From NCBI GenBank assembly GCA_963555825.3, contig CAUVXB020000002.1:1120001-1184000 (forward strand): 64,000 nucleotides of DNA, read 5' to 3'. This DNA comes from Alphaproteobacteria bacterium (GTDB lineage Bacteria > Pseudomonadota > Alphaproteobacteria > JAAXGF01). A program made the translations under genes and the position numbers. The notes below the pieces were generated by a model. It was not told where the DNA came from and did no database searches. It saw nothing but the letters and a program-made list of their open reading frames with translations. Below are positions 6,755-48,586 of this stretch, piece after piece. Positions within the stretch are counted from its first letter, which is position 1, and each line of letters starts with the position of its first letter.

Positions 6755-6964
6755 TTAGAGGTTGCCTTCGCGCTGCGCGCGTTTGCGCGCCAGCTTGCGG
6801 GCGCGCCGAACGGCTTCGGCGGCCTGACGGACACGCCGCTCCGACGGCTTCTCATAAGCGCGGCGCATCTTCATCTCACGGAAAATACCCTCGCGCTGCA
6901 TCTTCTTCTTGAGCGCGCGCAGAGCCTGATCGACATTGTTGTCGCGGACGACGACCTGAACCAA
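6755..6964 (-). CDS. rpsU: 30S ribosomal protein S21
   Basis: [31 protein letters not shown]. Confidence 0.97.
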
Positions 6965-7073
6965 ATAACATCTCCCGGGTTAACGGTGCGCTTGATAGCA
7001 TAGGCGGACCGGCTTGTGAAGGCCCCAATGGCTGTGAAAAAGCGATAAATTCGAAGGTTTCGAGGGTGAGGAC

Positions 7074-7628
7074 ATGGCAATTCTGAAGATCGCCCGCATG
7101 GGCCACCCTGTGCTCGGCCGCCCGGCCGAGCCGGTCGCCGACCCGACCGCGCCCGAGATCCAGGAACTCGTCGCCGACATGATCGAGACCATGGAGGACG
7201 CCGAGGGCCTCGGCCTCGCCGCGCCCCAGGTCCATGTGCCCAAACGCGTCGTCATCTTCCTCGCGCCGCGCGACGCCGAGGAAGAAGAGAGCGGCGACTG
7301 GGGCGGCCTCACCGTGCTGGTCAATCCGGTCGTCGAGACGATCGGCGACGACCGCGTCGAGCGCTGGGAGGGCTGCCTCTCGGTGCCCGGCCTGCGCGGC
7401 CTGGTGCCGCGCTTCGCGCGGGTCCGCTATACCGGCGTGACGCCGATGGGCGAGGCGATCGAGCGCACCGTCGAGGGGCTGCATGCGACCGTCGTGCAGC
7501 ACGAATGCGACCATCTCGACGGTGTCCTCTATCCGATGCGCATGGACGACCTGACCAAGCTGATCTTCGAGTCCGAGATGCGCCACCGGCCGCGCCCGGC
7601 CGACGAGGAAGAGATCGCGGCGGCCTGA
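7074..7628 (+). CDS. def: Peptide deformylase (copy 1)
   Basis: GLGLAAPQ, EGCLS, HECDHLDG. Confidence 0.95.
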   Translation: MAILKIARMGHPVLGRPAEPVADPTAPEIQELVADMIETMEDAEGLGLAAPQVHVPKRVVIFLAPRDAEEEESGDWGGLTVLVNPVVETIGDDRVERWEGCLSVPGLRGLVPRFARVRYTGVTPMGEAIERTVEGLHATVVQHECDHLDGVLYPMRMDDLTKLIFESEMRHRPRPADEEEIAAA

Positions 7629-7768
7629 TCGATATGCGGTCATCTTTTTGTGCGGTCACCTTCGGTGACCTGCGCTCAATCGCCGCGCATGCTTCTGCCG
7701 AACGGTCGGCGGCCGGCAGTCGCCGGCTGGAAGATTCCGACCGATTTCGATTGGCCGGATTATGCGCT
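7627..7768 (+). repeat. Dispersed MITE/REP-like repeat family 1, copy A
   Basis: Shares GTGCGGTCACC..GGTGACCTGCGCTCAATCGCCGCGCATGC and GCCGAACGGTCGGCGG with 8991-9175 and 29984-30164. Confidence 0.75.
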
Positions 7769-7806
7769 CGACCGGAATCTGCTATCATCGGTGTCGAGGT
7801 GATGTC

Positions 7807-8361
7807 ATGGCTATCTTGAAGATCGCCCGCATGGGCCACCCGGTGCTGAGCCGCCCGGCCGAGCCGGTCGCCGACCCGACCGCGCCCGAGATCGCCCGGC
7901 TCGTCGACGACATGCTCGAAACGCTGGACGACATCGGCGGCCGCGGCATCGCCGCGCCCCAGGTTCACGTCGCCAAGCGCGTCTTCATCTTCCGCGTGCC
8001 CAGCAACGAGAGCGAGGCCGAGAGCGGCGACTGGAGCGGGCTCGAGGCCCTGGTCAACCCGACCGTCGAGCCGCTCGGCGACGAACGCATCGAGGGCTGG
8101 GAGGGCTGCCTCTCGCTGCCCGGCCTGCGCGGCTGGGTGCAGCGTTTCGCCCGGGTACGCTACCGCGGCACGACGCCCGGCGGCGAGGCGGTCGAGCGCA
8201 CCGTCGAGGGCCGCGCGGCGCGCACCGTGCAGCACGAGTTCGACCACCTCGACGGCATTCTCTACCCGATGCGCATGGACGATCTCTCGAGACTGATCTT
8301 CGCTTCCGAGCTGCCGCACCACGGCGCGGCCTGGACCGGCTGGGACAGGGCGGTCGCATGA
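7807..8361 (+). CDS. def: Peptide deformylase (copy 2, tandem paralogue)
   Basis: MAILKIARMGHP start nearly identical to copy 1; GRGIAAPQ, EGCLS, HEFDHLDG. Confidence 0.92.
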   Translation: MAILKIARMGHPVLSRPAEPVADPTAPEIARLVDDMLETLDDIGGRGIAAPQVHVAKRVFIFRVPSNESEAESGDWSGLEALVNPTVEPLGDERIEGWEGCLSLPGLRGWVQRFARVRYRGTTPGGEAVERTVEGRAARTVQHEFDHLDGILYPMRMDDLSRLIFASELPHHGAAWTGWDRAVA

Positions 8362-8993
8362 CCGACACCAAGCTCGACAAGTTGCGCCCCAAGCTGCTGG
8401 CGGCGATCCTCGCCCATGTGCCGTTCGACGGCTGGTCGGACCGGTCCTTGCGCGCCGGCACCGAGGACGCGGGCGCCGATCTCGCGACGCTGCGCCGCGC
8501 CTTCCCACGCGGCGTTGCCGGCGTGCTCGCCTTCTGGGCGGCCGAGAGCGACCGCGCCATGCTCGCCGCGCTCGAGGAACACGACCTCGCCGAGATGCGC
8601 GTGCGCGCGCGCATCGCGACCGCCGTGCGCGCGCGCATCGACGTTAACGCCGGCCACCGCGAGGCGCTGCGCCTGGCGCTCGGCCGCGCCGCGCTGCCGC
8701 GCCACGCACCCGACGCGTTGGCCGCGCTGTGGCGTTCGGTCGACGCCATGTGGCGCGCCGCGGGCGACACCGCAACCGACTTCAACTTCTACACCAAGCG
8801 CGGCCTGCTCGCCGGCGTCTACTCATCGACGCTGCTCTACTGGCTCAACGACAAGTCAGAGGGCTCGGCGGCGACCTGGGCGTTCCTCGAGCGCCGTATC
8901 TCCGACGTCATGCGCGTGCCCAAGGCGCTGGGCCGTCTGAGGGCCTGCCTGCCCGACCCCGAACGCATCATCCGCCGCGCCGCGCGGGGGTAG
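8358..8993 (+). CDS. COQ9 family protein (rpsU-divergently transcribed)
   Basis: HVPFDGWS, GDTATDFNFYTKR, W.FLERRI; location opposite rpsU. Confidence 0.9.
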   Translation: MTDTKLDKLRPKLLAAILAHVPFDGWSDRSLRAGTEDAGADLATLRRAFPRGVAGVLAFWAAESDRAMLAALEEHDLAEMRVRARIATAVRARIDVNAGHREALRLALGRAALPRHAPDALAALWRSVDAMWRAAGDTATDFNFYTKRGLLAGVYSSTLLYWLNDKSEGSAATWAFLERRISDVMRVPKALGRLRACLPDPERIIRRAARG

Positions 8994-9175
8994 AGTATTG
9001 GTGCGGTCACCTTTGGTGACCTGCGCTCAATCGCCGCGCATGCCAATCTTATGGGATCAAGCCGTTCTTGTGGGATCAAGACTGGCCGAACGGTCGGCGG
9101 CCCCCCTCTTGTCCCATATAGATTGGCGCGGGCTGGTAGTATCCGACCGATGCTGATCGATCGGAACATGCGTTA
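8991..9175 (+). repeat. Repeat family 1, copy B
   Basis: Begins TAGAGTATTGGTGCGGTCA at the COQ9 stop codon; same core blocks as the other copies. Confidence 0.8.
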
Positions 9176-9186
9176 AGCGAAGCAAC

Positions 9187-9669
9187 CTACTGCTCTGCCC
9201 TGACACGATCGAAATAGGCGAGATTTTCCAGGGTTTGCGCGCAGGCTTTGGCGGCTTCGGCGCCTTTGACCTTGAAGTGATCACGGAAAAAATTCGTATG
9301 CGCGTCGTGTTCGTGGAAGCGCTGCGGCGTCAGCACGATCGAGAGGATCGGCACCTCGGTGTCGAGTTGCACGCGCATCATGGCGTCGCTGACGCTCCTC
9401 GCGACGAAGTCGTGGCGGTAGATGCCGCCGTCGACGATCAGGCCGGCGGCGACGATCGCCCGATAGCGGCCGGACTCGGCCAGAAGTTTTGCCTGCAGGG
9501 GGATTTCGAGGCTTCCTGGAACCTCGAATACGTCGACGCTGTCGCGCGCGATGCCGAGCGCCGCGAGTTCGTCGATGAACGCGAGGCGCGCCTGATCGAC
9601 GATGTCCTTGTGCCACGTCGCCTGGACGAACGCGATGCGCGGCGTGGTGTGTGGGTGGCTCTGGTTCAT
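9187..9669 (-). CDS. ribH: 6,7-dimethyl-8-ribityllumazine synthase (RibH2-type)
   Basis: WHKDIV, VPGSLEIP, DGGIYRHDFVA (type II signature); upstream FMN riboswitch. Confidence 0.92.
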   Translation of the reverse strand: MNQSHPHTTPRIAFVQATWHKDIVDQARLAFIDELAALGIARDSVDVFEVPGSLEIPLQAKLLAESGRYRAIVAAGLIVDGGIYRHDFVARSVSDAMMRVQLDTEVPILSIVLTPQRFHEHDAHTNFFRDHFKVKGAEAAKACAQTLENLAYFDRVRAEQ

Positions 9670-9757
9670 GGTTGTGCCCTTGCGGTTTGCGACCAAAACC
9701 AGGGCGTACGGGAAACGAGGGCCGGCGGTGCAAGCGGCACGGCGCGACCGGCAGCAT

Positions 9758-38412: not shown

Positions 38413-39132
38413 GGGGCTGTCCTAGCTAAGCGGCATGCTTAGGCTAGGATGGCGGGATGTACGAGAGGAAAAGCCGGCTCAGTGATTGGAAGCGCGGTCG
38501 TCTGATTGAGCACTTCGTTGCGGGTACGACGGCTCGGGCAGCAGCCGAACTGGTTGGCGTCCACCGGAACACGGCGGCCTCGTTTTATACTCGGCTTCGC
38601 AAGGTGATTGCCGAGGAAATGGAGAAGGCCTCGCCTTTTGCCGGAGAGATCGAGGTTGATGAGAGTTATTTTGGCGGCCGCCGCAAAGGCAAGCGGGGTC
38701 GAGGCGCTGGCGGAAAAGTCCCGGTTTTCGGGCTTTTGAAGCGAGGTGGGAAGGTCTACACGGCGATGATTCCCAATGCCCGGACTGCCACGTTGATGCC
38801 GATTATGGAGCGTATGATCCGGCCTGACAGCATCGTCTATACGGACGGCTTTTCGAGCTATGATGCCCTGGACGTTTCGGACTTCCACCATGTTCGGATC
38901 AATCACTCGGAGCGGTTCGTCGACGAGCGGAGCCATATCAACGGGATCGAGAACTTCTGGAACCAGGCGAAGCGGCATTTACGGCGCTTCAATGGCGTCC
39001 CGAAACAGAGCTTTCACCTGTTCCTCAAGGAGTGCGAATGGCGGTTCAACGGAGGTGACCACCGAGAACTGCTTAACCAATTGAAGACATGGATTATTTT
39101 GAGACAGAAACGCCCTTAGCTAGGACAGCCCG
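38413..39132 (+). mobile_element. IS1595-family (IS1016-like) element, copy 1 (720 bp)
   Basis: IRs GGGCTGTCCTAGCTAAG / CTTAGCTAGGACAGCCC; TTACATTA duplication. Confidence 0.93.
38457..39119 (+). CDS. IS1595 family transposase
   Basis: EVDESYFGG, GKRGRG, YTDG, HINGIENFW, FLKECEWRFN. Confidence 0.95.
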   Translation: MYERKSRLSDWKRGRLIEHFVAGTTARAAAELVGVHRNTAASFYTRLRKVIAEEMEKASPFAGEIEVDESYFGGRRKGKRGRGAGGKVPVFGLLKRGGKVYTAMIPNARTATLMPIMERMIRPDSIVYTDGFSSYDALDVSDFHHVRINHSERFVDERSHINGIENFWNQAKRHLRRFNGVPKQSFHLFLKECEWRFNGGDHRELLNQLKTWIILRQKRP

Positions 39133-40166
39133 TTACATTATTCGCATCCATCCAGGCTTGTATCGTGTCTCTGTTCCCAACGACGATATTGTTACCGTCA
39201 GGCTTCCAGAATTTTCTGAGGGTGATGCCAGCGTCGTCCTTTTCGAATTTTCCTTTAACAATATTCTTAATTTCCTCATCTGCCTGCCCTTCCTTGACCC
39301 CAGAATCCTTTTGAACGGCCTGCAGGGCGCCGAGAAAGGTACCTGCTTGGTAGTAGATGTGCAGATCCGAGAGCGCCTGCTCGAACGAGTAGACCTCCAA
39401 AGTCTGACCACTACCTTTGAGAATTGGAATCAGGGCCTTCTTACGCTCGGCGTTCATCGCCGTGATGAGCACCGGGACGGTCTTCTGTTGGAAAAAATTC
39501 TTGTTGATCGAGGTCCGCGACGCGCTCGTGCCGCCGGAGATAGCGGCGATAATTGCCTTCGTCGAGGCCGCACCGACGAGAGTGCCCGCCAGATCGAGGC
39601 CGATCACCAAAATGTCTGCTGCGGTATCCAGTTGTGCCTTATCGACGGCAAATCTTCTGATAAACTTAATGTACTGAATGTTCATCAGCGTTAGCCTCAC
39701 GCCAATAAACTCGTTGCGTTTGTCGAGTCTTTCATTCGGCTTAGTAGCATAAAAGCCTGTTACTGTTACCTGTTTTGTCTTGAGCTCGTCCTCCAGATCC
39801 TGAATATCCTGGTCTACGTTGAACGACTGGTCCGGTGCGCCCGGTTTCGTGATTGCGCCGCATCCCCCTACAGCGAGGCCGCAGCAAACCAACAATGCCG
39901 GAAATATTGCCCTGAGTCTCATCGCCGCCTCCCCTGCGCATCGGCAGCGCGGGAGGCTCGTCGGCGTTTCCCGGACCGCAGACACGCTATGTTATCTTGG
40001 CGGTCGTTGCGCCGCCGAGAAATGATAGCAATTTCTAACCGTTTAGCAATTTTTTAGTTGTTGTTTCAACCGGTAACGGAAAAAGACTATGACGTGTCGC
40101 CACAGGCGTCGACACGCAGCCGCTAGGCTCGTGAGGTCGTCGGCCGGCGAACCGATATGCGGACGA

Positions 40167-44156: not shown

Positions 44157-46292
44157 CTAGAGTGCTACCACCCTGTTTTGACGACTTACTTTCTCTGTAT
44201 TCTGCGACGTGTATTGCGCGGCGCCAGCGGTCGCGCCCTCCTGGAGAACATCGATGATCGCGGCGTGATCGTCGAGGATGTCGCGGGCCTCGGCAAGCAT
44301 GGCGACGTACTGCGCTTTCAATGCCGCTTTGGCAGCCGCCAGCTGTGATTCGGCAGCGGCCAGCTCGGCCTTTGCCGCGGCCGCCTTGGCTCGCATCAGG
44401 GCAGCGTGGGCAAACCGATTCGCGTCGTCGCCGTTTGTCGTGGTCCCTTCTACTTCCGGCGTCTGGGCCTTTTTCCGCGCCTCGTCAGCGTAAACTTCCG
44501 CCTTGCGCCCATCTTCGATCGCTTGACGGCTGCTCGGGGAAGCGGCATGCGCCTCGGCCTTTAGCCCGGCACGGATCGCGATCTCGTCGGCCCTGTTCGC
44601 TGTGTCCGTCGCATTGGCATTTGGTTTTTCGGGGTCCGGTTGGGGCACGAGGATCTTGACGCCGCCCTCGCCGAGCCCGGCTTTGTTTTCCGCGCCCTTC
44701 GCCGCTGACTCCGCACCCATTGCAGTGCCTGTATTCGTGTTAACGCCAGCCTTGGCACCAGTCACCTCACCCAGTTTGTCCTGGTAGTCCATGGCTGTAT
44801 TGGTTCTTAGCTCCTCAATTTCTTTGAGCGCGCGGTCATGGAGCGCCGCGACATTGAAGCCGCCGGCGGTGGCGCCACCATCGCCCATTTGTCCGCGCGT
44901 GAGACGGCTCGCCGTGGCGAGCACCGAATCCAACGCTCCGCTGCTTCCACCGCTGGCGACGGCCGTGGCAACCGCCTTGATCGCGGCCTTCGTGACGTCG
45001 GTGTAGGCCTCGACCAGCTCAGTCGGGTCGCTGTCGAAGGACTTCAGGTTCCAGTTGCCGATGTCGTCCTTGATCAGCGCCATGGCCACTTCGCCCTGAC
45101 CGCTGGTATAGACCGTATTGACCTTCGACCAGTTCATGTCGGCGAACAGCCGCTCAATGACGCGCACCCGGTCGGTCGTTTCCTCGGACGAGAAGGCGTT
45201 GAGTGGATGGAGAATCATCTCCTCAATGAGCGCCGGCGCCGCCGCGCGGTTCCATATATAGAGGTTGAGGAAATCGGTCGGCATCGTGTCGCGCAAATAG
45301 ACCGATGTCGCCAGCTCCTGTCTCGGCCGTCCCTCGCCCGCAATCTGCTTGAGCAGCGCATCGGCGCGCGATTCAATCTGGTTGGCCATTTCGGATGCGA
45401 AATTGGAGAAGTTTGTCATGCTGATCCGCACCAGCCGGTTCTGCGGCGGGGCGGCAGTATGAGCCTCCGACCAATAGATCGCCTTGGATTTGAAGATGGT
45501 GGCGACCTCGGCCGAATCTTGGAGGATATTCTTGACCATTGGTTGGTCGGGAACGCCGGCCAAATCAGCGTGGCCAATACTCTCCTCGACTTTCCGAATT
45601 CGCGTAAGCAGTTGCACGATGTCATCGTGAAGTTGCGCGCTCATCAGGCAGCCTGCGTAGGTATCAAGTTCCCAGATGAAACCGGTAAGTTTTCGCTTCA
45701 TAGAATATGTGGAACAGAATTCTATTACTTTCGGTCGGAACTCCAAATTCAACATATTCTGGATTTCAACGATTTTTTTCGAAATTTCTTCCTGATTCTC
45801 GGTCTTTAAGTTTTCCAGCGCCAAGTCTTCCAGCGCCAAATTTATTGTCGACAAGTCCTCGGTAGGCGTCCTGCTAGTCTTCAAATTCTCGACTTCGGAT
45901 ACCACGCGTCTTGTGCTGCCTTGCCCCGATGTGCCTGAAGAATTCGAGCCCGATGATGGCGATTGAATTTTTAGCCTGGTGGGTTTATCGAGTGGCCAGA
46001 TTATGTCTTGGTAATTCGGCAGAAAGCCATTTTTTGCCGCCGTAACGATGACCACATCGTTTAACGCGGTAAGGGCGTTTGGGACTTCCCTGATCAGCGC
46101 CTTGAGTGCAGCCCACTGGATCTCGGGCTCCTTCGAGAGCGGGCCCTTGTAGACCTCGACTTCGACACGCATGGACGCAGCGCCATGGAACGGCCCCTTG
46201 GCACAGGCCGACAGGCCGAGCGACGCGGCGACGGCGAAGGCGGCGCAAGTTGCGGCGCGCGGGAACTGCCTGAACATTATCCGTCCCCTCAT
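44157..46292 (-). CDS. 711-aa uncharacterised lipoprotein
   Basis: Signal peptide with lipobox LSAC; long open frame; helical and Ala-rich; no family recognised. Confidence 0.8.
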   Translation of the reverse strand: MRGRIMFRQFPRAATCAAFAVAASLGLSACAKGPFHGAASMRVEVEVYKGPLSKEPEIQWAALKALIREVPNALTALNDVVIVTAAKNGFLPNYQDIIWPLDKPTRLKIQSPSSGSNSSGTSGQGSTRRVVSEVENLKTSRTPTEDLSTINLALEDLALENLKTENQEEISKKIVEIQNMLNLEFRPKVIEFCSTYSMKRKLTGFIWELDTYAGCLMSAQLHDDIVQLLTRIRKVEESIGHADLAGVPDQPMVKNILQDSAEVATIFKSKAIYWSEAHTAAPPQNRLVRISMTNFSNFASEMANQIESRADALLKQIAGEGRPRQELATSVYLRDTMPTDFLNLYIWNRAAAPALIEEMILHPLNAFSSEETTDRVRVIERLFADMNWSKVNTVYTSGQGEVAMALIKDDIGNWNLKSFDSDPTELVEAYTDVTKAAIKAVATAVASGGSSGALDSVLATASRLTRGQMGDGGATAGGFNVAALHDRALKEIEELRTNTAMDYQDKLGEVTGAKAGVNTNTGTAMGAESAAKGAENKAGLGEGGVKILVPQPDPEKPNANATDTANRADEIAIRAGLKAEAHAASPSSRQAIEDGRKAEVYADEARKKAQTPEVEGTTTNGDDANRFAHAALMRAKAAAAKAELAAAESQLAAAKAALKAQYVAMLAEARDILDDHAAIIDVLQEGATAGAAQYTSQNTEKVSRQNRVVAL

Positions 46293-46732
46293 GGTTTCTT
46301 TTCCGGTCCGCTCGAATTCACTCCGGCGGGTCGTACTGCTTGATGACCTTGCCGAGAGCATCCTTGGGCGCCGTCGGTTCAGCCGTCTCGAGCCGATCGA
46401 GGACACGCTCGGCGCGGACGATCCGCAAGCGTTCCTCGACCAGCGGCAGCAGCATTGCGCTGCGGCTTGGCTGTTCGTTGAGCACCCGGCTCGACAATTC
46501 CTTGAGCGCGCCGATCAGCGGCTTGGCGCTGGATGACATGGCCAGGATCAGGCGCTCGTCCTGATTGAATGTCCGCCAGCCTTCGGGCCCCAGAATCTGG
46601 AAACCGCGCCGCGCGTCGCCGCATTCGAGGACCAAGGCATCCTTTGTCGCCGAGGCTACGTTGAACTGGCCGAGCTGATATGCGGCATCGCCGATGGCGG
46701 TGACCATCTCACCGATTTTGCTAATAACTTTA

Positions 46733-47452
46733 CGGGCTGTCCTAGCTAAGGGCGTTTCTGTCTCAAAATAATCCATGTCTTCAATTGGTTAAGCAGTTCT
46801 CGGTGGTCACCTCCGTTGAACCGCCATTCGCACTCCTTGAGGAACAGGTGAAAGCTCTGTTTCGGGACGCCATTGAAGCGCCGTAAATGCCGCTTCGCCT
46901 GGTTCCAGAAGTTCTCGATCCCGTTGATATGGCTCCGCTCGTCGACGAACCGCTCCGAGTGATTGATCCGAACATGGTGGAAGTCCGAAACGTCCAGGGC
47001 ATCATAGCTCGAAAAGCCGTCCGTATAGACGATGCTGTCAGGCCGGATCATACGCTCCATAATCGGCATCAACGTGGCAGTCCGGGCATTGGGAATCATC
47101 GCCGTGTAGACCTTCCCACCTCGCTTCAAAAGCCCGAAAACCGGGACTTTTCCGCCAGCGCCTCGACCCCGCTTGCCTTTGCGGCGGCCGCCAAAATAAC
47201 TCTCATCAACCTCGATCTCTCCGGCAAAAGGCGAGGCCTTCTCCATTTCCTCGGCAATCACCTTGCGAAGCCGAGTATAAAACGAGGCCGCCGTGTTCCG
47301 GTGGACGCCAACCAGTTCGGCTGCTGCCCGAGCCGTCGTACCCGCAACGAAGTGCTCAATCAGACGACCGCGCTTCCAATCACTGAGCCGGCTTTTCCTC
47401 TCGTACATCCCGCCATCCTAGCCTAAGCATGCCGCTTAGCTAGGACAGCCCC
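46733..47452 (-). mobile_element. IS1595-family element, copy 2
   Basis: Same IRs and length as copy 1; flanks TAACTTTA / TAACTTTT. Confidence 0.93.
46746..47408 (-). CDS. IS1595 family transposase
   Basis: Identical translation to 38457-39119. Confidence 0.95.
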   Translation of the reverse strand: MYERKSRLSDWKRGRLIEHFVAGTTARAAAELVGVHRNTAASFYTRLRKVIAEEMEKASPFAGEIEVDESYFGGRRKGKRGRGAGGKVPVFGLLKRGGKVYTAMIPNARTATLMPIMERMIRPDSIVYTDGFSSYDALDVSDFHHVRINHSERFVDERSHINGIENFWNQAKRHLRRFNGVPKQSFHLFLKECEWRFNGGDHRELLNQLKTWIILRQKRP

Positions 47453-48586
47453 TAACTTTTTTCGGTTCATCGATAGTTTTCGAGCCCTCTGCGTGTTCGA
47501 CCGCGGTGTCAATGTGTTGATTTGTGCCGTCGGTGGTTGTCACCAATTTCGATTTCGCCGCCTCGGCGGCACGGGCTGCCGTCTCGGCAGCGTCTTTGAG
47601 CATTTTGATTGCGGCAGCTTTGGATTCCGGAGTTGCGGCCGAATCTTGGACCGCGGTATTCGCAACGACCAAAGCGGTGATTAGAGTACCCCTTAGCTCT
47701 AGGAGCGTTTTCCCAGCGTTTTCCGCCGCGTCCATTCGGTCGAGAACCGGCTGAAGGTTCGCGCCGCCGATTATTGTTATTTGGCCCCTGATGGCATTTC
47801 GGAATTCGCCTAGGAGCTTCTTCGATTCGGCGTCGATGTCGCCATTTTTGTCCTTAAGGCTATTCTTCAACCGGTCATATTCCGCGAGCAGGCGCGCGAG
47901 ATCATCGAACTGGCGATTGCGCGCGGCGGCCCGTTCGGTCTCTTCGCGCGATTCGAAATGGAACCGGCCGCTTTTCTCGTCAAACACGACCGCGGCGCCC
48001 AACGGATCGATCTCCGATTTGTGCAGGGTTCCCGATTCGAAATGGATCTTGCTGAACAGCGAATCTGCCTTGCCGGTCATGTGGAACCGGTAAAGCGAGT
48101 CGATGGCGATGCTATACGGTCCTTCGTTGTCCTTAGTGAAGGTGCCCGTAGCGTCGGAGCGCGGTTCCTCCCTTGGTACGATGCCCTGGCAGGCGTCGAA
48201 GACGCGGAAGTAATAGGTCGTTCGGAAGCGGACGTCGTCGTCCTGGTGGCGCGGGTCGATACCGGCGCGCACCTCCATATGCTGGGGCAGCGCGCAAGCG
48301 GCCAGGAGGAGCGCAGCCAAGCCCGCAAGAACCAAAGCGCTGATCGCACGGATACCCCGCGTCTCAACGCGCACTCTCCTAGACACCCCCATAGCTTAAC
48401 CACCATATATTGTGGTTCACTACAAGATATTGTGGCACGTTGGGAGTACGCCTACAAGAGATTTGACCGCCGTTCAGAGATTATTTATTGAAACTTGCCC
48501 GCCATACGCGAATGCTCGGCGGTGTGCCGGTTGGCGCTTCGCGCGCGCTGGCGCGCGGCCTTTTCCGGGGGCGCGGCCCCCGGACC

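Follow-up and report, generated by a model that had tools for sequence, protein, structure and literature searches.

A two-gene cassette for putative envelope lipoproteins, split by an insertion sequence, between ilvE and moaE of an alphaproteobacterium

The 64,000-nucleotide stretch of alphaproteobacterial DNA analysed here (contig CAUVXB020000002.1, positions 1,120,001 to 1,184,000; the whole stretch is called the window) raises the question of what is encoded by two co-oriented genes, designated A and B, that lie between ilvE and moaE and whose relatives, where named at all, are called only 'hypothetical protein'. We propose that A and B form a self-contained, horizontally mobile cassette for two lipid-anchored envelope proteins acting as a heteromer, and put the probability of this reading at roughly 45%. 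Judged from its sequence, the cassette of this genome has only lately become a pseudogene and is inactive as a pair; since gene A is split by an insertion sequence (IS), the pair cannot work here as such.

Pairing and relationships of the A and B families

By a word-seeded search, B has 267 related clusters, the best foreign match having E 8.7e-124, and A has 72, with E 8.8e-50 for its best foreign match beyond the species group; none of the clusters has a precomputed Pfam domain. When an alignment profile of B was run against 1.84 billion cluster representatives, 1123 were matched at E≤0.001, of which 750 remained when the cut-off was tightened to E≤1e-10 and 371 when it was set to E≤1e-30. 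Both families are present in Nitrospirota, Nitrospinota, Pseudomonadota, Planctomycetota and others. The ratio of nonsynonymous to synonymous substitution rates (dN/dS), estimated on 9 pairs of A and 11 pairs of B sequences with 75–99.5% identity, was 0.00–0.31 in conserved columns (≤0.12 in 17 of the 20 pairs) and 0.18–0.69 in the other columns, with synonymous rates alike in the two classes; this contrast is partly built in, since the core was defined by family conservation. The homologues in other phyla and the low dN/dS of the core together indicate that A and B are real genes and not chance open reading frames (ORFs). Against the two relatives nearest to A (84% and 79% identical overall), its residues 1–175 were 88–100%, residues 351–448 were 83–100% and residues 226–325 were 32–64% identical.

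An earlier reading of this locus made from its letters alone (the sequence-only reading) had proposed that the two genes form an obligate pair. To the 80 loci obtained from a scan of one genome per species, the A and B profiles were applied over all six-frame ORFs. In 69 of these loci B is immediately preceded by an A or A-like gene on its own strand; 9 loci could not be judged and 2 were without A. Of the 51 close relatives of B (L001–L051), 46 have A immediately before B and on its strand; in L012, L013, L028 and L046, B stands at the very start of the available DNA, and L050 holds only a C-terminal B fragment. The distant relatives (L052–L080) have B-like ORFs of about 490–2000 aa, most of them above 900 aa. 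In 13 of these 29 loci the small ORF upstream matches the A profile, and in a further 10 it comes from one cluster that is homologous to A (hhalign probability 98%, E 2.3e-13); of the remaining 6, five have B at the start of the DNA and one (L064) has no detectable A. The two genes are often a few bases apart or overlapping. These data support the view that A and B are an obligate pair. In L008 (at 6924-9683) and in P0154, one open frame runs from the end of A into B with no stop in between and with the B signal peptide kept inside; these joined frames look like frameshifts or read-through rather than designed fusions.

A search for further conserved neighbours found no third gene; the flanking ORFs that cluster across loci are antisense shadows of A and B, together with the small A-like cluster mentioned above. 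In 15 diverse loci, 77 flanking ORFs scanned with Pfam turned out to be unrelated housekeeping, regulatory and transport genes.

The sequence-only reading had recognised no family for either protein, and wider searches agree with it. Scans of A and B against Pfam, NCBIfam, PADLOC and PHROGs gave nothing above noise; in PADLOC-DB 2.0, A matched only LmuB on its helical part (E 0.0068, 12.7 bits) and B matched nothing. Against sequence profiles of the PDB there was no match for A, and B matched only designed or coiled-coil chains at E≥0.016. Foldseek searches gave no match at E≤0.001 in the PDB for A or B, the conserved cores being barely covered, and none at E≤0.001 in BFVD for B, which alone was searched there. 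What the fold searches returned were generic helix bundles, with values of a size that is common for helical proteins. In the ESM Atlas the top scores (0.79 for B and 0.83 for A) were to unnamed clusters, and DUF4831 scored 0.82. Homology between A and B themselves was considered and rejected, as the hhalign probability was 22% and the alignment comprised the signal peptides only. Within the literature reached by full-text search for peptide motifs and by topic word search, no published description of A or B was found. We rate the cassette, from such comparisons, as outside every known kind, the conserved cores being barely covered by the fold lists.

The copy in this genome

The features of the cassette, all on the minus strand, are as follows.

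44157..46292, minus strand: gene B, of 711 aa if counted from the first ATG; the probable start, the ATG at 46277, gives 706 aa
46318..46731, minus strand: 3' part of gene A (TGA stop at 46318-46320), comprising the last stretch of the helical insert, then Cys348 and a conserved domain at the C-terminus (RRGFQILGPEGWRTF...)
46732..47452, minus strand: IS of the IS1595 family, 721 bp, inside gene A (transposase ORF 46746..47408)
46725..46731 and 47453-47459: target-site duplication TAACTTT, a direct repeat of 7 bp
47453..48392, minus strand: 5' part of gene A, codons 1-313 plus one base, with the signal peptide, the conserved beta-rich domain at the N-terminus and the greater part of the variable helical insert
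48393..48586, minus strand: AT-rich non-coding leader of the cassette, separating gene A from moaE, which has a hairpin at its stop
48564-48584: hairpin at the moaE stop

The interrupting element is an ordinary small member of the IS1595 family, with no notable difference from it: i) its 220-aa transposase matches Pfam DDE_Tnp_IS1595 (2.1e-34) and NCBIfam transpos_IS1595 NF033547 (2e-49, 168 bits against a cut-off of 75), ii) its inverted ends are present, if imperfect, iii) the 7-bp direct repeat TAACTTT stands at both flanks, and iv) it is present in multiple copies, the 6.04-Mb genome holding 15 that are full-length and 3 that are partial, all 100% identical. With so many identical copies, the element is expanding. 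A second 721-bp copy, 100% identical, lies within the window at 38413-39133 on the minus strand, 7.6 kb from the one in gene A.

The 5' ORF of gene A, which begins MGVSRRVRVETRGIRAISALVLAGLAALLLAAC at 48392, enters the IS and terminates at 47436. On reading the sequence with the IS and one duplicate taken out, the frame of gene A is restored (...TIDEPKKV/ISKIGEM..., the slash marking the joint) and encodes 448 aa. The reconstructed protein matches the natural intact protein P0122 (448 aa), with 100% identity over the full 314-aa query from the 5' part; the 3' part, compared by eye, is the C-terminus of P0122. The empty site was also found: a DNA contig of run X10 joins 46724 to 47453, omitting 728 bp, with 7 letters common to both sides. 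Apart from the insertion gene A is otherwise intact, and B is intact. Since 15 full-length identical copies of the IS, an intact allele and an empty site exist, the break of gene A is recent, and the IS has been active recently. The description in the sequence-only reading of two co-oriented lipobox genes between ilvE and moaE, the first of 448 aa after removal of the IS, is borne out by the coordinates, the lipoboxes, P0122 and the flanking genes; that the cassette is an accessory, horizontally moving island, inactivated in this copy, had been missed.

The spacing of 25 bp and the 711 aa given for B in that reading are true of the first ATG (46292), which lies 25 nt past the stop of A. The true start of B is probably the ATG at 46277, since database copies begin there, five codons later (P0209, 706 aa, 100% identical), and a stretch AGGGGA is read directly 5' of this second ATG; the spacing then becomes 40 nt.

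By NCBIfam, the cassette is flanked by ilvE (6.1e-155) on one side and by moaE (4.4e-49), moaD, moeA, mobB, pgsA and uvrC on the other; past ilvE are a MarR-type regulator and an OmpR/EnvZ-like pair. The GC content is 0.48–0.64 over both genes and mostly 0.64–0.73 on either side, so that A and B are a two-gene island of low GC between ilvE and moaE. In the AT-rich leader 5' of gene A (48410-48460, minus strand), CCACAATAT occurs twice, with starts 20 nt apart and close to the start codon; the repeat may be an operator or promoter element.

Anchoring, anatomy and binding of the proteins

Both proteins have an N-terminal signal peptide with a lipobox cysteine, as bacterial lipoproteins processed by Lgt and LspA do: LLLAAC in A (Cys33, codon 48294-48296) and LGLSAC in B (Cys codon 46203-46205). 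At the lipobox column, Cys is present in 62/62 A and 98/100 B non-gap sequences. Further conserved cysteines are C68 (66/66) and C348 (62/64) in A, and C193 (64/78) and C215 (92/105) in B, and these pairs fit an oxidising compartment. Conserved lipoboxes and cysteine pairs fit a location of A and B in the envelope. Asp at position +2 is absent from both window proteins and, among relatives with a detected lipobox, is present in 1/51 A and 0/85 B sequences. In E. coli, lipoproteins without Asp at +2 go to the outer membrane. A and B would be lipid-anchored in the envelope, the +2 residue pointing to the outer membrane.

AlphaFold2 models were built with family alignments of 66 (A) and 107 (B) sequences and reached a mean predicted local distance difference test score (pLDDT) of 77.3 for A and 78.3 for B. 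The model of A has strands at residues 54-69, 93-108, 117-124, 134-138 and 143-147 and again at 349-377, with a helical bundle between the two sets (149-343) and helices at 383-444. In that of B, a strand at 38-48 comes right after the anchor, and a three-stranded sheet (388-422) is preceded by helices at 56-387 and followed by long helices to residue 702. Long predicted helices span 57 and 84 residues in B and 62 in A. Protein B consists of a conserved N-terminal strand (MRVEVEVYKGPLSK), a conserved core (about residues 260–440), a variable middle and a variable Ala-rich helical tail. The motif-like blocks noticed in the sequence-only reading are real, and nothing else in either family is as well conserved. 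Three regions are weakly conserved and often absent across the families, namely the helical bundle of A and, in B, the middle (about 85–255) and the tail (about 500–660), and minimal A-like proteins without any helical insert exist. Pfam scans of 30 long relatives detected no toxin family and no informative fusions, with the sole exception of an Ig/cadherin-like domain inserted in the variable middle of one relative (P0279); this insert fits an interaction surface.

The predicted anchoring and the long helices bear on one alternative, namely that A and B are an outer-membrane-anchored periplasmic scaffold or spacer whose coiled coils reach the cell wall or the inner membrane, as with Lpp or the Lpo activators, and which tunes envelope architecture in some lineages. 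The absence of Asp at +2 in the window copies and nearly all relatives, helices of the lengths given above, the lack of hydrophobic membrane segments and the cysteine pairs all agree with such a role. Nevertheless, we regard it as unlikely, as Pfam scans of A, B and the long relatives detected no peptidoglycan-binding domain, as the cassette is frequently lost in near-identical strains, and as its patchy horizontal distribution (see below) would be unusual for a core envelope role. The nearest counterparts of A and B are generic ones: lipoprotein partners of the envelope, variable helical surface lipoproteins and two-component helical toxins. Of the first kind, found in the outer membrane of Gram-negative bacteria, Lpp, LpoA/LpoB and the surface-exclusion protein TraT resemble A and B in having a lipobox signal peptide, a mostly helical mature part and a presumed envelope anchor. 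No sequence or fold relation to them was found, however, and A and B differ from them in being co-encoded, in their conserved alpha/beta cores and hypervariable helical inserts, and in their accessory spread.

The sequence-only reading had seen a hydrophobic Gly/Ala hairpin in B and had suggested an oligomeric pore, with alpha-pore-forming toxins, MACPF proteins, CsgG-type rings or contact-dependent systems as models. The hairpin does not hold: in mature B the Kyte-Doolittle mean over 19 residues is nowhere above 1.17, a value reached outside the Gly/Ala region, which overlaps a linker of low confidence (pLDDT <50, residues 460-477). Since its hydrophobicity is too low, this stretch is better taken as a flexible Ala/Gly/Ser linker than as a membrane element. 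Across the families, a mean of ≥1.6 over 19 residues was reached in 1/62 A and 1/98 B mature sequences, at non-conserved places. Nor did the suggested systems find backing, there being no Pfam match to any of them, generic helix bundles as the folds returned, and no conserved hydrophobic segment; MACPF and CsgG are also absent from the listed fold rows, which barely covered the conserved cores. A two-component alpha-helical pore-forming or membrane-damaging toxin like ClyA, YaxAB or XaxAB, released from the outer membrane or in vesicles, appears highly improbable to us. The ClyA family and YaxAB/XaxAB share with A and B the two adjacent genes and the long helical bundles with a small beta element. 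Unlike them, A and B are both predicted to be lipid-anchored, and the hydrophobicity scan showed no hydrophobic head; neither protein gave a Pfam or NCBIfam match at E≤1 to the ClyA family or to two-component alpha-pore-forming toxins, or a significant fold match to them in lists that barely covered the conserved cores.

The core of B has 13–16 invariant positions, mostly polar or aromatic, across sets of 26–107 sequences; they include D311, Q316, R334, D385, W388, N392, K408, D409, N413, W414, K417 and Y430. These residues, together with a dN/dS of 0.02–0.11 in the B core and the pairing of the genes, would suit a B that is an enzyme or ligand binder acting on an envelope polymer or lipid, with A as its anchored cofactor, chaperone or regulator and the helices as spacers. 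We find this improbable, given that no enzyme or binding family was detected in Pfam, NCBIfam or PDB sequences, that no fold match covers the core (which was never searched on its own) and that invariant polar residues can equally mark a protein-protein interface.

Physical binding was examined by predicting the complex of A 34-448 with B 31-480, each with its alignment, the B tail lying outside the test. The A-B complex scored 0.51 (runs 0.51, 0.44 and 0.57), whereas none of the three controls scored above 0.00. At least 55% of contacts were common to the runs, and the pLDDT of the partner was 60 or more. The mark of this test is reached by 116/157 solved complexes and 2/215 mismatched pairs, and at scores ≤0.60 it is met by just 18/157 solved complexes and by both passing mismatches. 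The result weakly supports binding of A to B, and is counted as a small gain since the strict pairing of the genes had made binding likely beforehand. Of the A/B complex proposed in the sequence-only reading, binding is what gains this support; its identity as a pore, ring or contact-dependent system does not. Insert lengths, measured between profile landmarks, ranged over 117–978 residues for the A insert, 239–889 for the B middle and 110–450 for the B tail. The length of the A insert correlated with that of the B tail (Spearman 0.45, p 0.006, n=36, kinship ignored) and did not correlate with that of the B middle (rho -0.06).

Spread, loss and possible role

The distribution of the cassette is patchy; Kiloniella spongiae, Novosphingobium fuchskuhlense and Pseudoalteromonas rubra are among its culturable carriers. 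In 12 other genomes of the window's own family there was no full-length match, only one weak fragment of 17 positions (E 1.2e-4), and a distant match was found in 1/28 other genomes of the same class. In the Nitrospira family, B was present at E≤1e-20 in 3/81 sampled genomes, the query genome counted; two genomes of that family (G107 and G115) each have one in-frame TGA within the B match and may hold broken copies. No tblastn match for B was obtained in plasmid and phage collections. In a tree of 45 B sequences made by a quick method, the B of the window falls in a clade (support 99*) of eight rows, comprising four Pseudomonadota, two Nitrospinota, one Nitrospirota and the window row. The tree requires eight phylum changes, where the minimum is six and shuffled labels give 16.7, which suggests that B has been inherited mostly vertically within lineages with some exchange between phyla. 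In one pair of Nitrospira loci (L018 and L021), the synonymous divergence (dS) of A and B, at 0.23–0.34, is some four to six times smaller than the 1.29 of the Pup ligase gene beside them; this single comparison hints at recent exchange of the cassette by recombination. On these comparisons, the cassette is taken to be accessory, horizontally moving and patchy across phyla. On a Nitrospirales chromosome (L005:1689-6884), it follows a phage-type integrase, an inverse-autotransporter beta-domain gene and two CARDB genes, in an island of surface proteins.

An accessory, horizontally moving cassette that evolves fast outside its core could also serve to exclude phage or other invaders, or to defend the cell against them, at the level of the envelope, its variable helices masking or mimicking a receptor. 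Neighbours of the conflict type occur in single loci, namely a caspase-family peptidase just upstream (L038), CHAT-TPR (L045) and DUF900 (L014), beside the phage-type integrase mentioned above. We consider such a module very unlikely, as PADLOC and PHROGs gave no match, as the phage and plasmid collections contained no copy, and as the neighbours vary by locus and are mostly housekeeping genes.

The 90%-identity clusters of A and B (P0194-P0220) contain many shortened forms from near-identical strains. Truncated A forms end after residue 126, with two different foreign tails, and also near residues 179, 227 and 313, the last being the form of this window. Truncated B forms end near residues 68, 107 and 199 or have frameshifts near 587, 607 and 660, and other B fragments begin at internal methionines. 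The foreign tails on several fragments mark true breaks; some of the other forms may be effects of contig ends or gene calling. One A fragment and one B fragment, both on contigs of length 145989, end in the same tail, ...GRCPGRC, which suggests two insertions of one element in one strain. Differences of 7 residues were also seen, as an AAETAAR repeat in A (P0204) and as a gap in B (P0002). Some of the runs that contain this stretch are labelled sponge metagenome, and the repeated breaks may reflect selection against the cassette in this host-associated lineage.

In the mechanism that we propose for the lipid-anchored heteromer, each protein has a small conserved alpha/beta core made of the strands that follow the lipid anchor and of a later beta-hairpin block, with helical bundles or coiled coils of very variable length inserted into the cores or appended to them. 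The conserved cores would hold A and B together and carry the common activity or binding site, and the variable helices would project as a fast-evolving surface that meets an outside partner, such as other cells, phage or a host. Gene structure, IS break, pairing, mosaic conservation, patchy distribution and the lack of a known family are observed; that the proteins are lipidated, reside in the envelope and bind each other, and what their variable helices do, is deduced from sequence and models.

Several points weigh against this proposal: i) the mechanism is without backing from any fold or family link; ii) by the calibration of the tool, a pass in the weak band of the complex test is more often wrong than right unless binding is already likely; iii) the correlation between the lengths of the A insert and the B tail is modest and uncorrected for relatedness; iv) dN/dS in the variable parts is below 1, so that relaxed constraint explains their variation as well as diversifying selection does; v) many loci owe their phylum label to a metagenome bin, and such bins may include contigs that do not belong there; vi) the broken copies may be equally explained by a preference of IS elements for an AT-richer island in an IS-rich genome; and vii) transcription has a weak sign at best. 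In the metatranscriptome libraries, most RNA cover falls on the multi-copy IS, and the contigs on the genes themselves (47692-47868 and 48149-48316 in A, 46079-46271 in B) are three short ones of depth 2–3 which could be carried-over DNA; gene parts without RNA contigs were not read as silent, since contigs cannot show absence.

In a more specific and rather doubtful form of the proposal, the cassette would encode a new variable envelope appendage of diderms, with the A and B cores as its heterodimeric lipoprotein base. The A insert and the B tail, which co-vary in length, would pair in a projecting helical rod, whose fast-changing surface would serve in recognition between the bacterium and other cells, phage or an animal host; the cassette would pass from phylum to phylum and be inactivated time and again, through insertions or frameshifts, where populations are host-associated. 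Fold matches of A and B to the OspC/Vsp lipoproteins of Borrelia and to the three-helix receptors of trypanosomes are at the noise level for helical bundles; unlike A and B, those proteins have neither a conserved alpha/beta core nor an obligate partner gene.

For genome annotation, the locus provides two definable families and a clear pseudogene call. As two sizeable, co-encoded families without annotation, solved relative or Pfam model, A and B are a clear target for structural work and genetics, and the module could reveal an envelope function so far unknown. If the variable-surface reading is true, they would represent a new kind of variable envelope structure beyond the well-studied pathogens.

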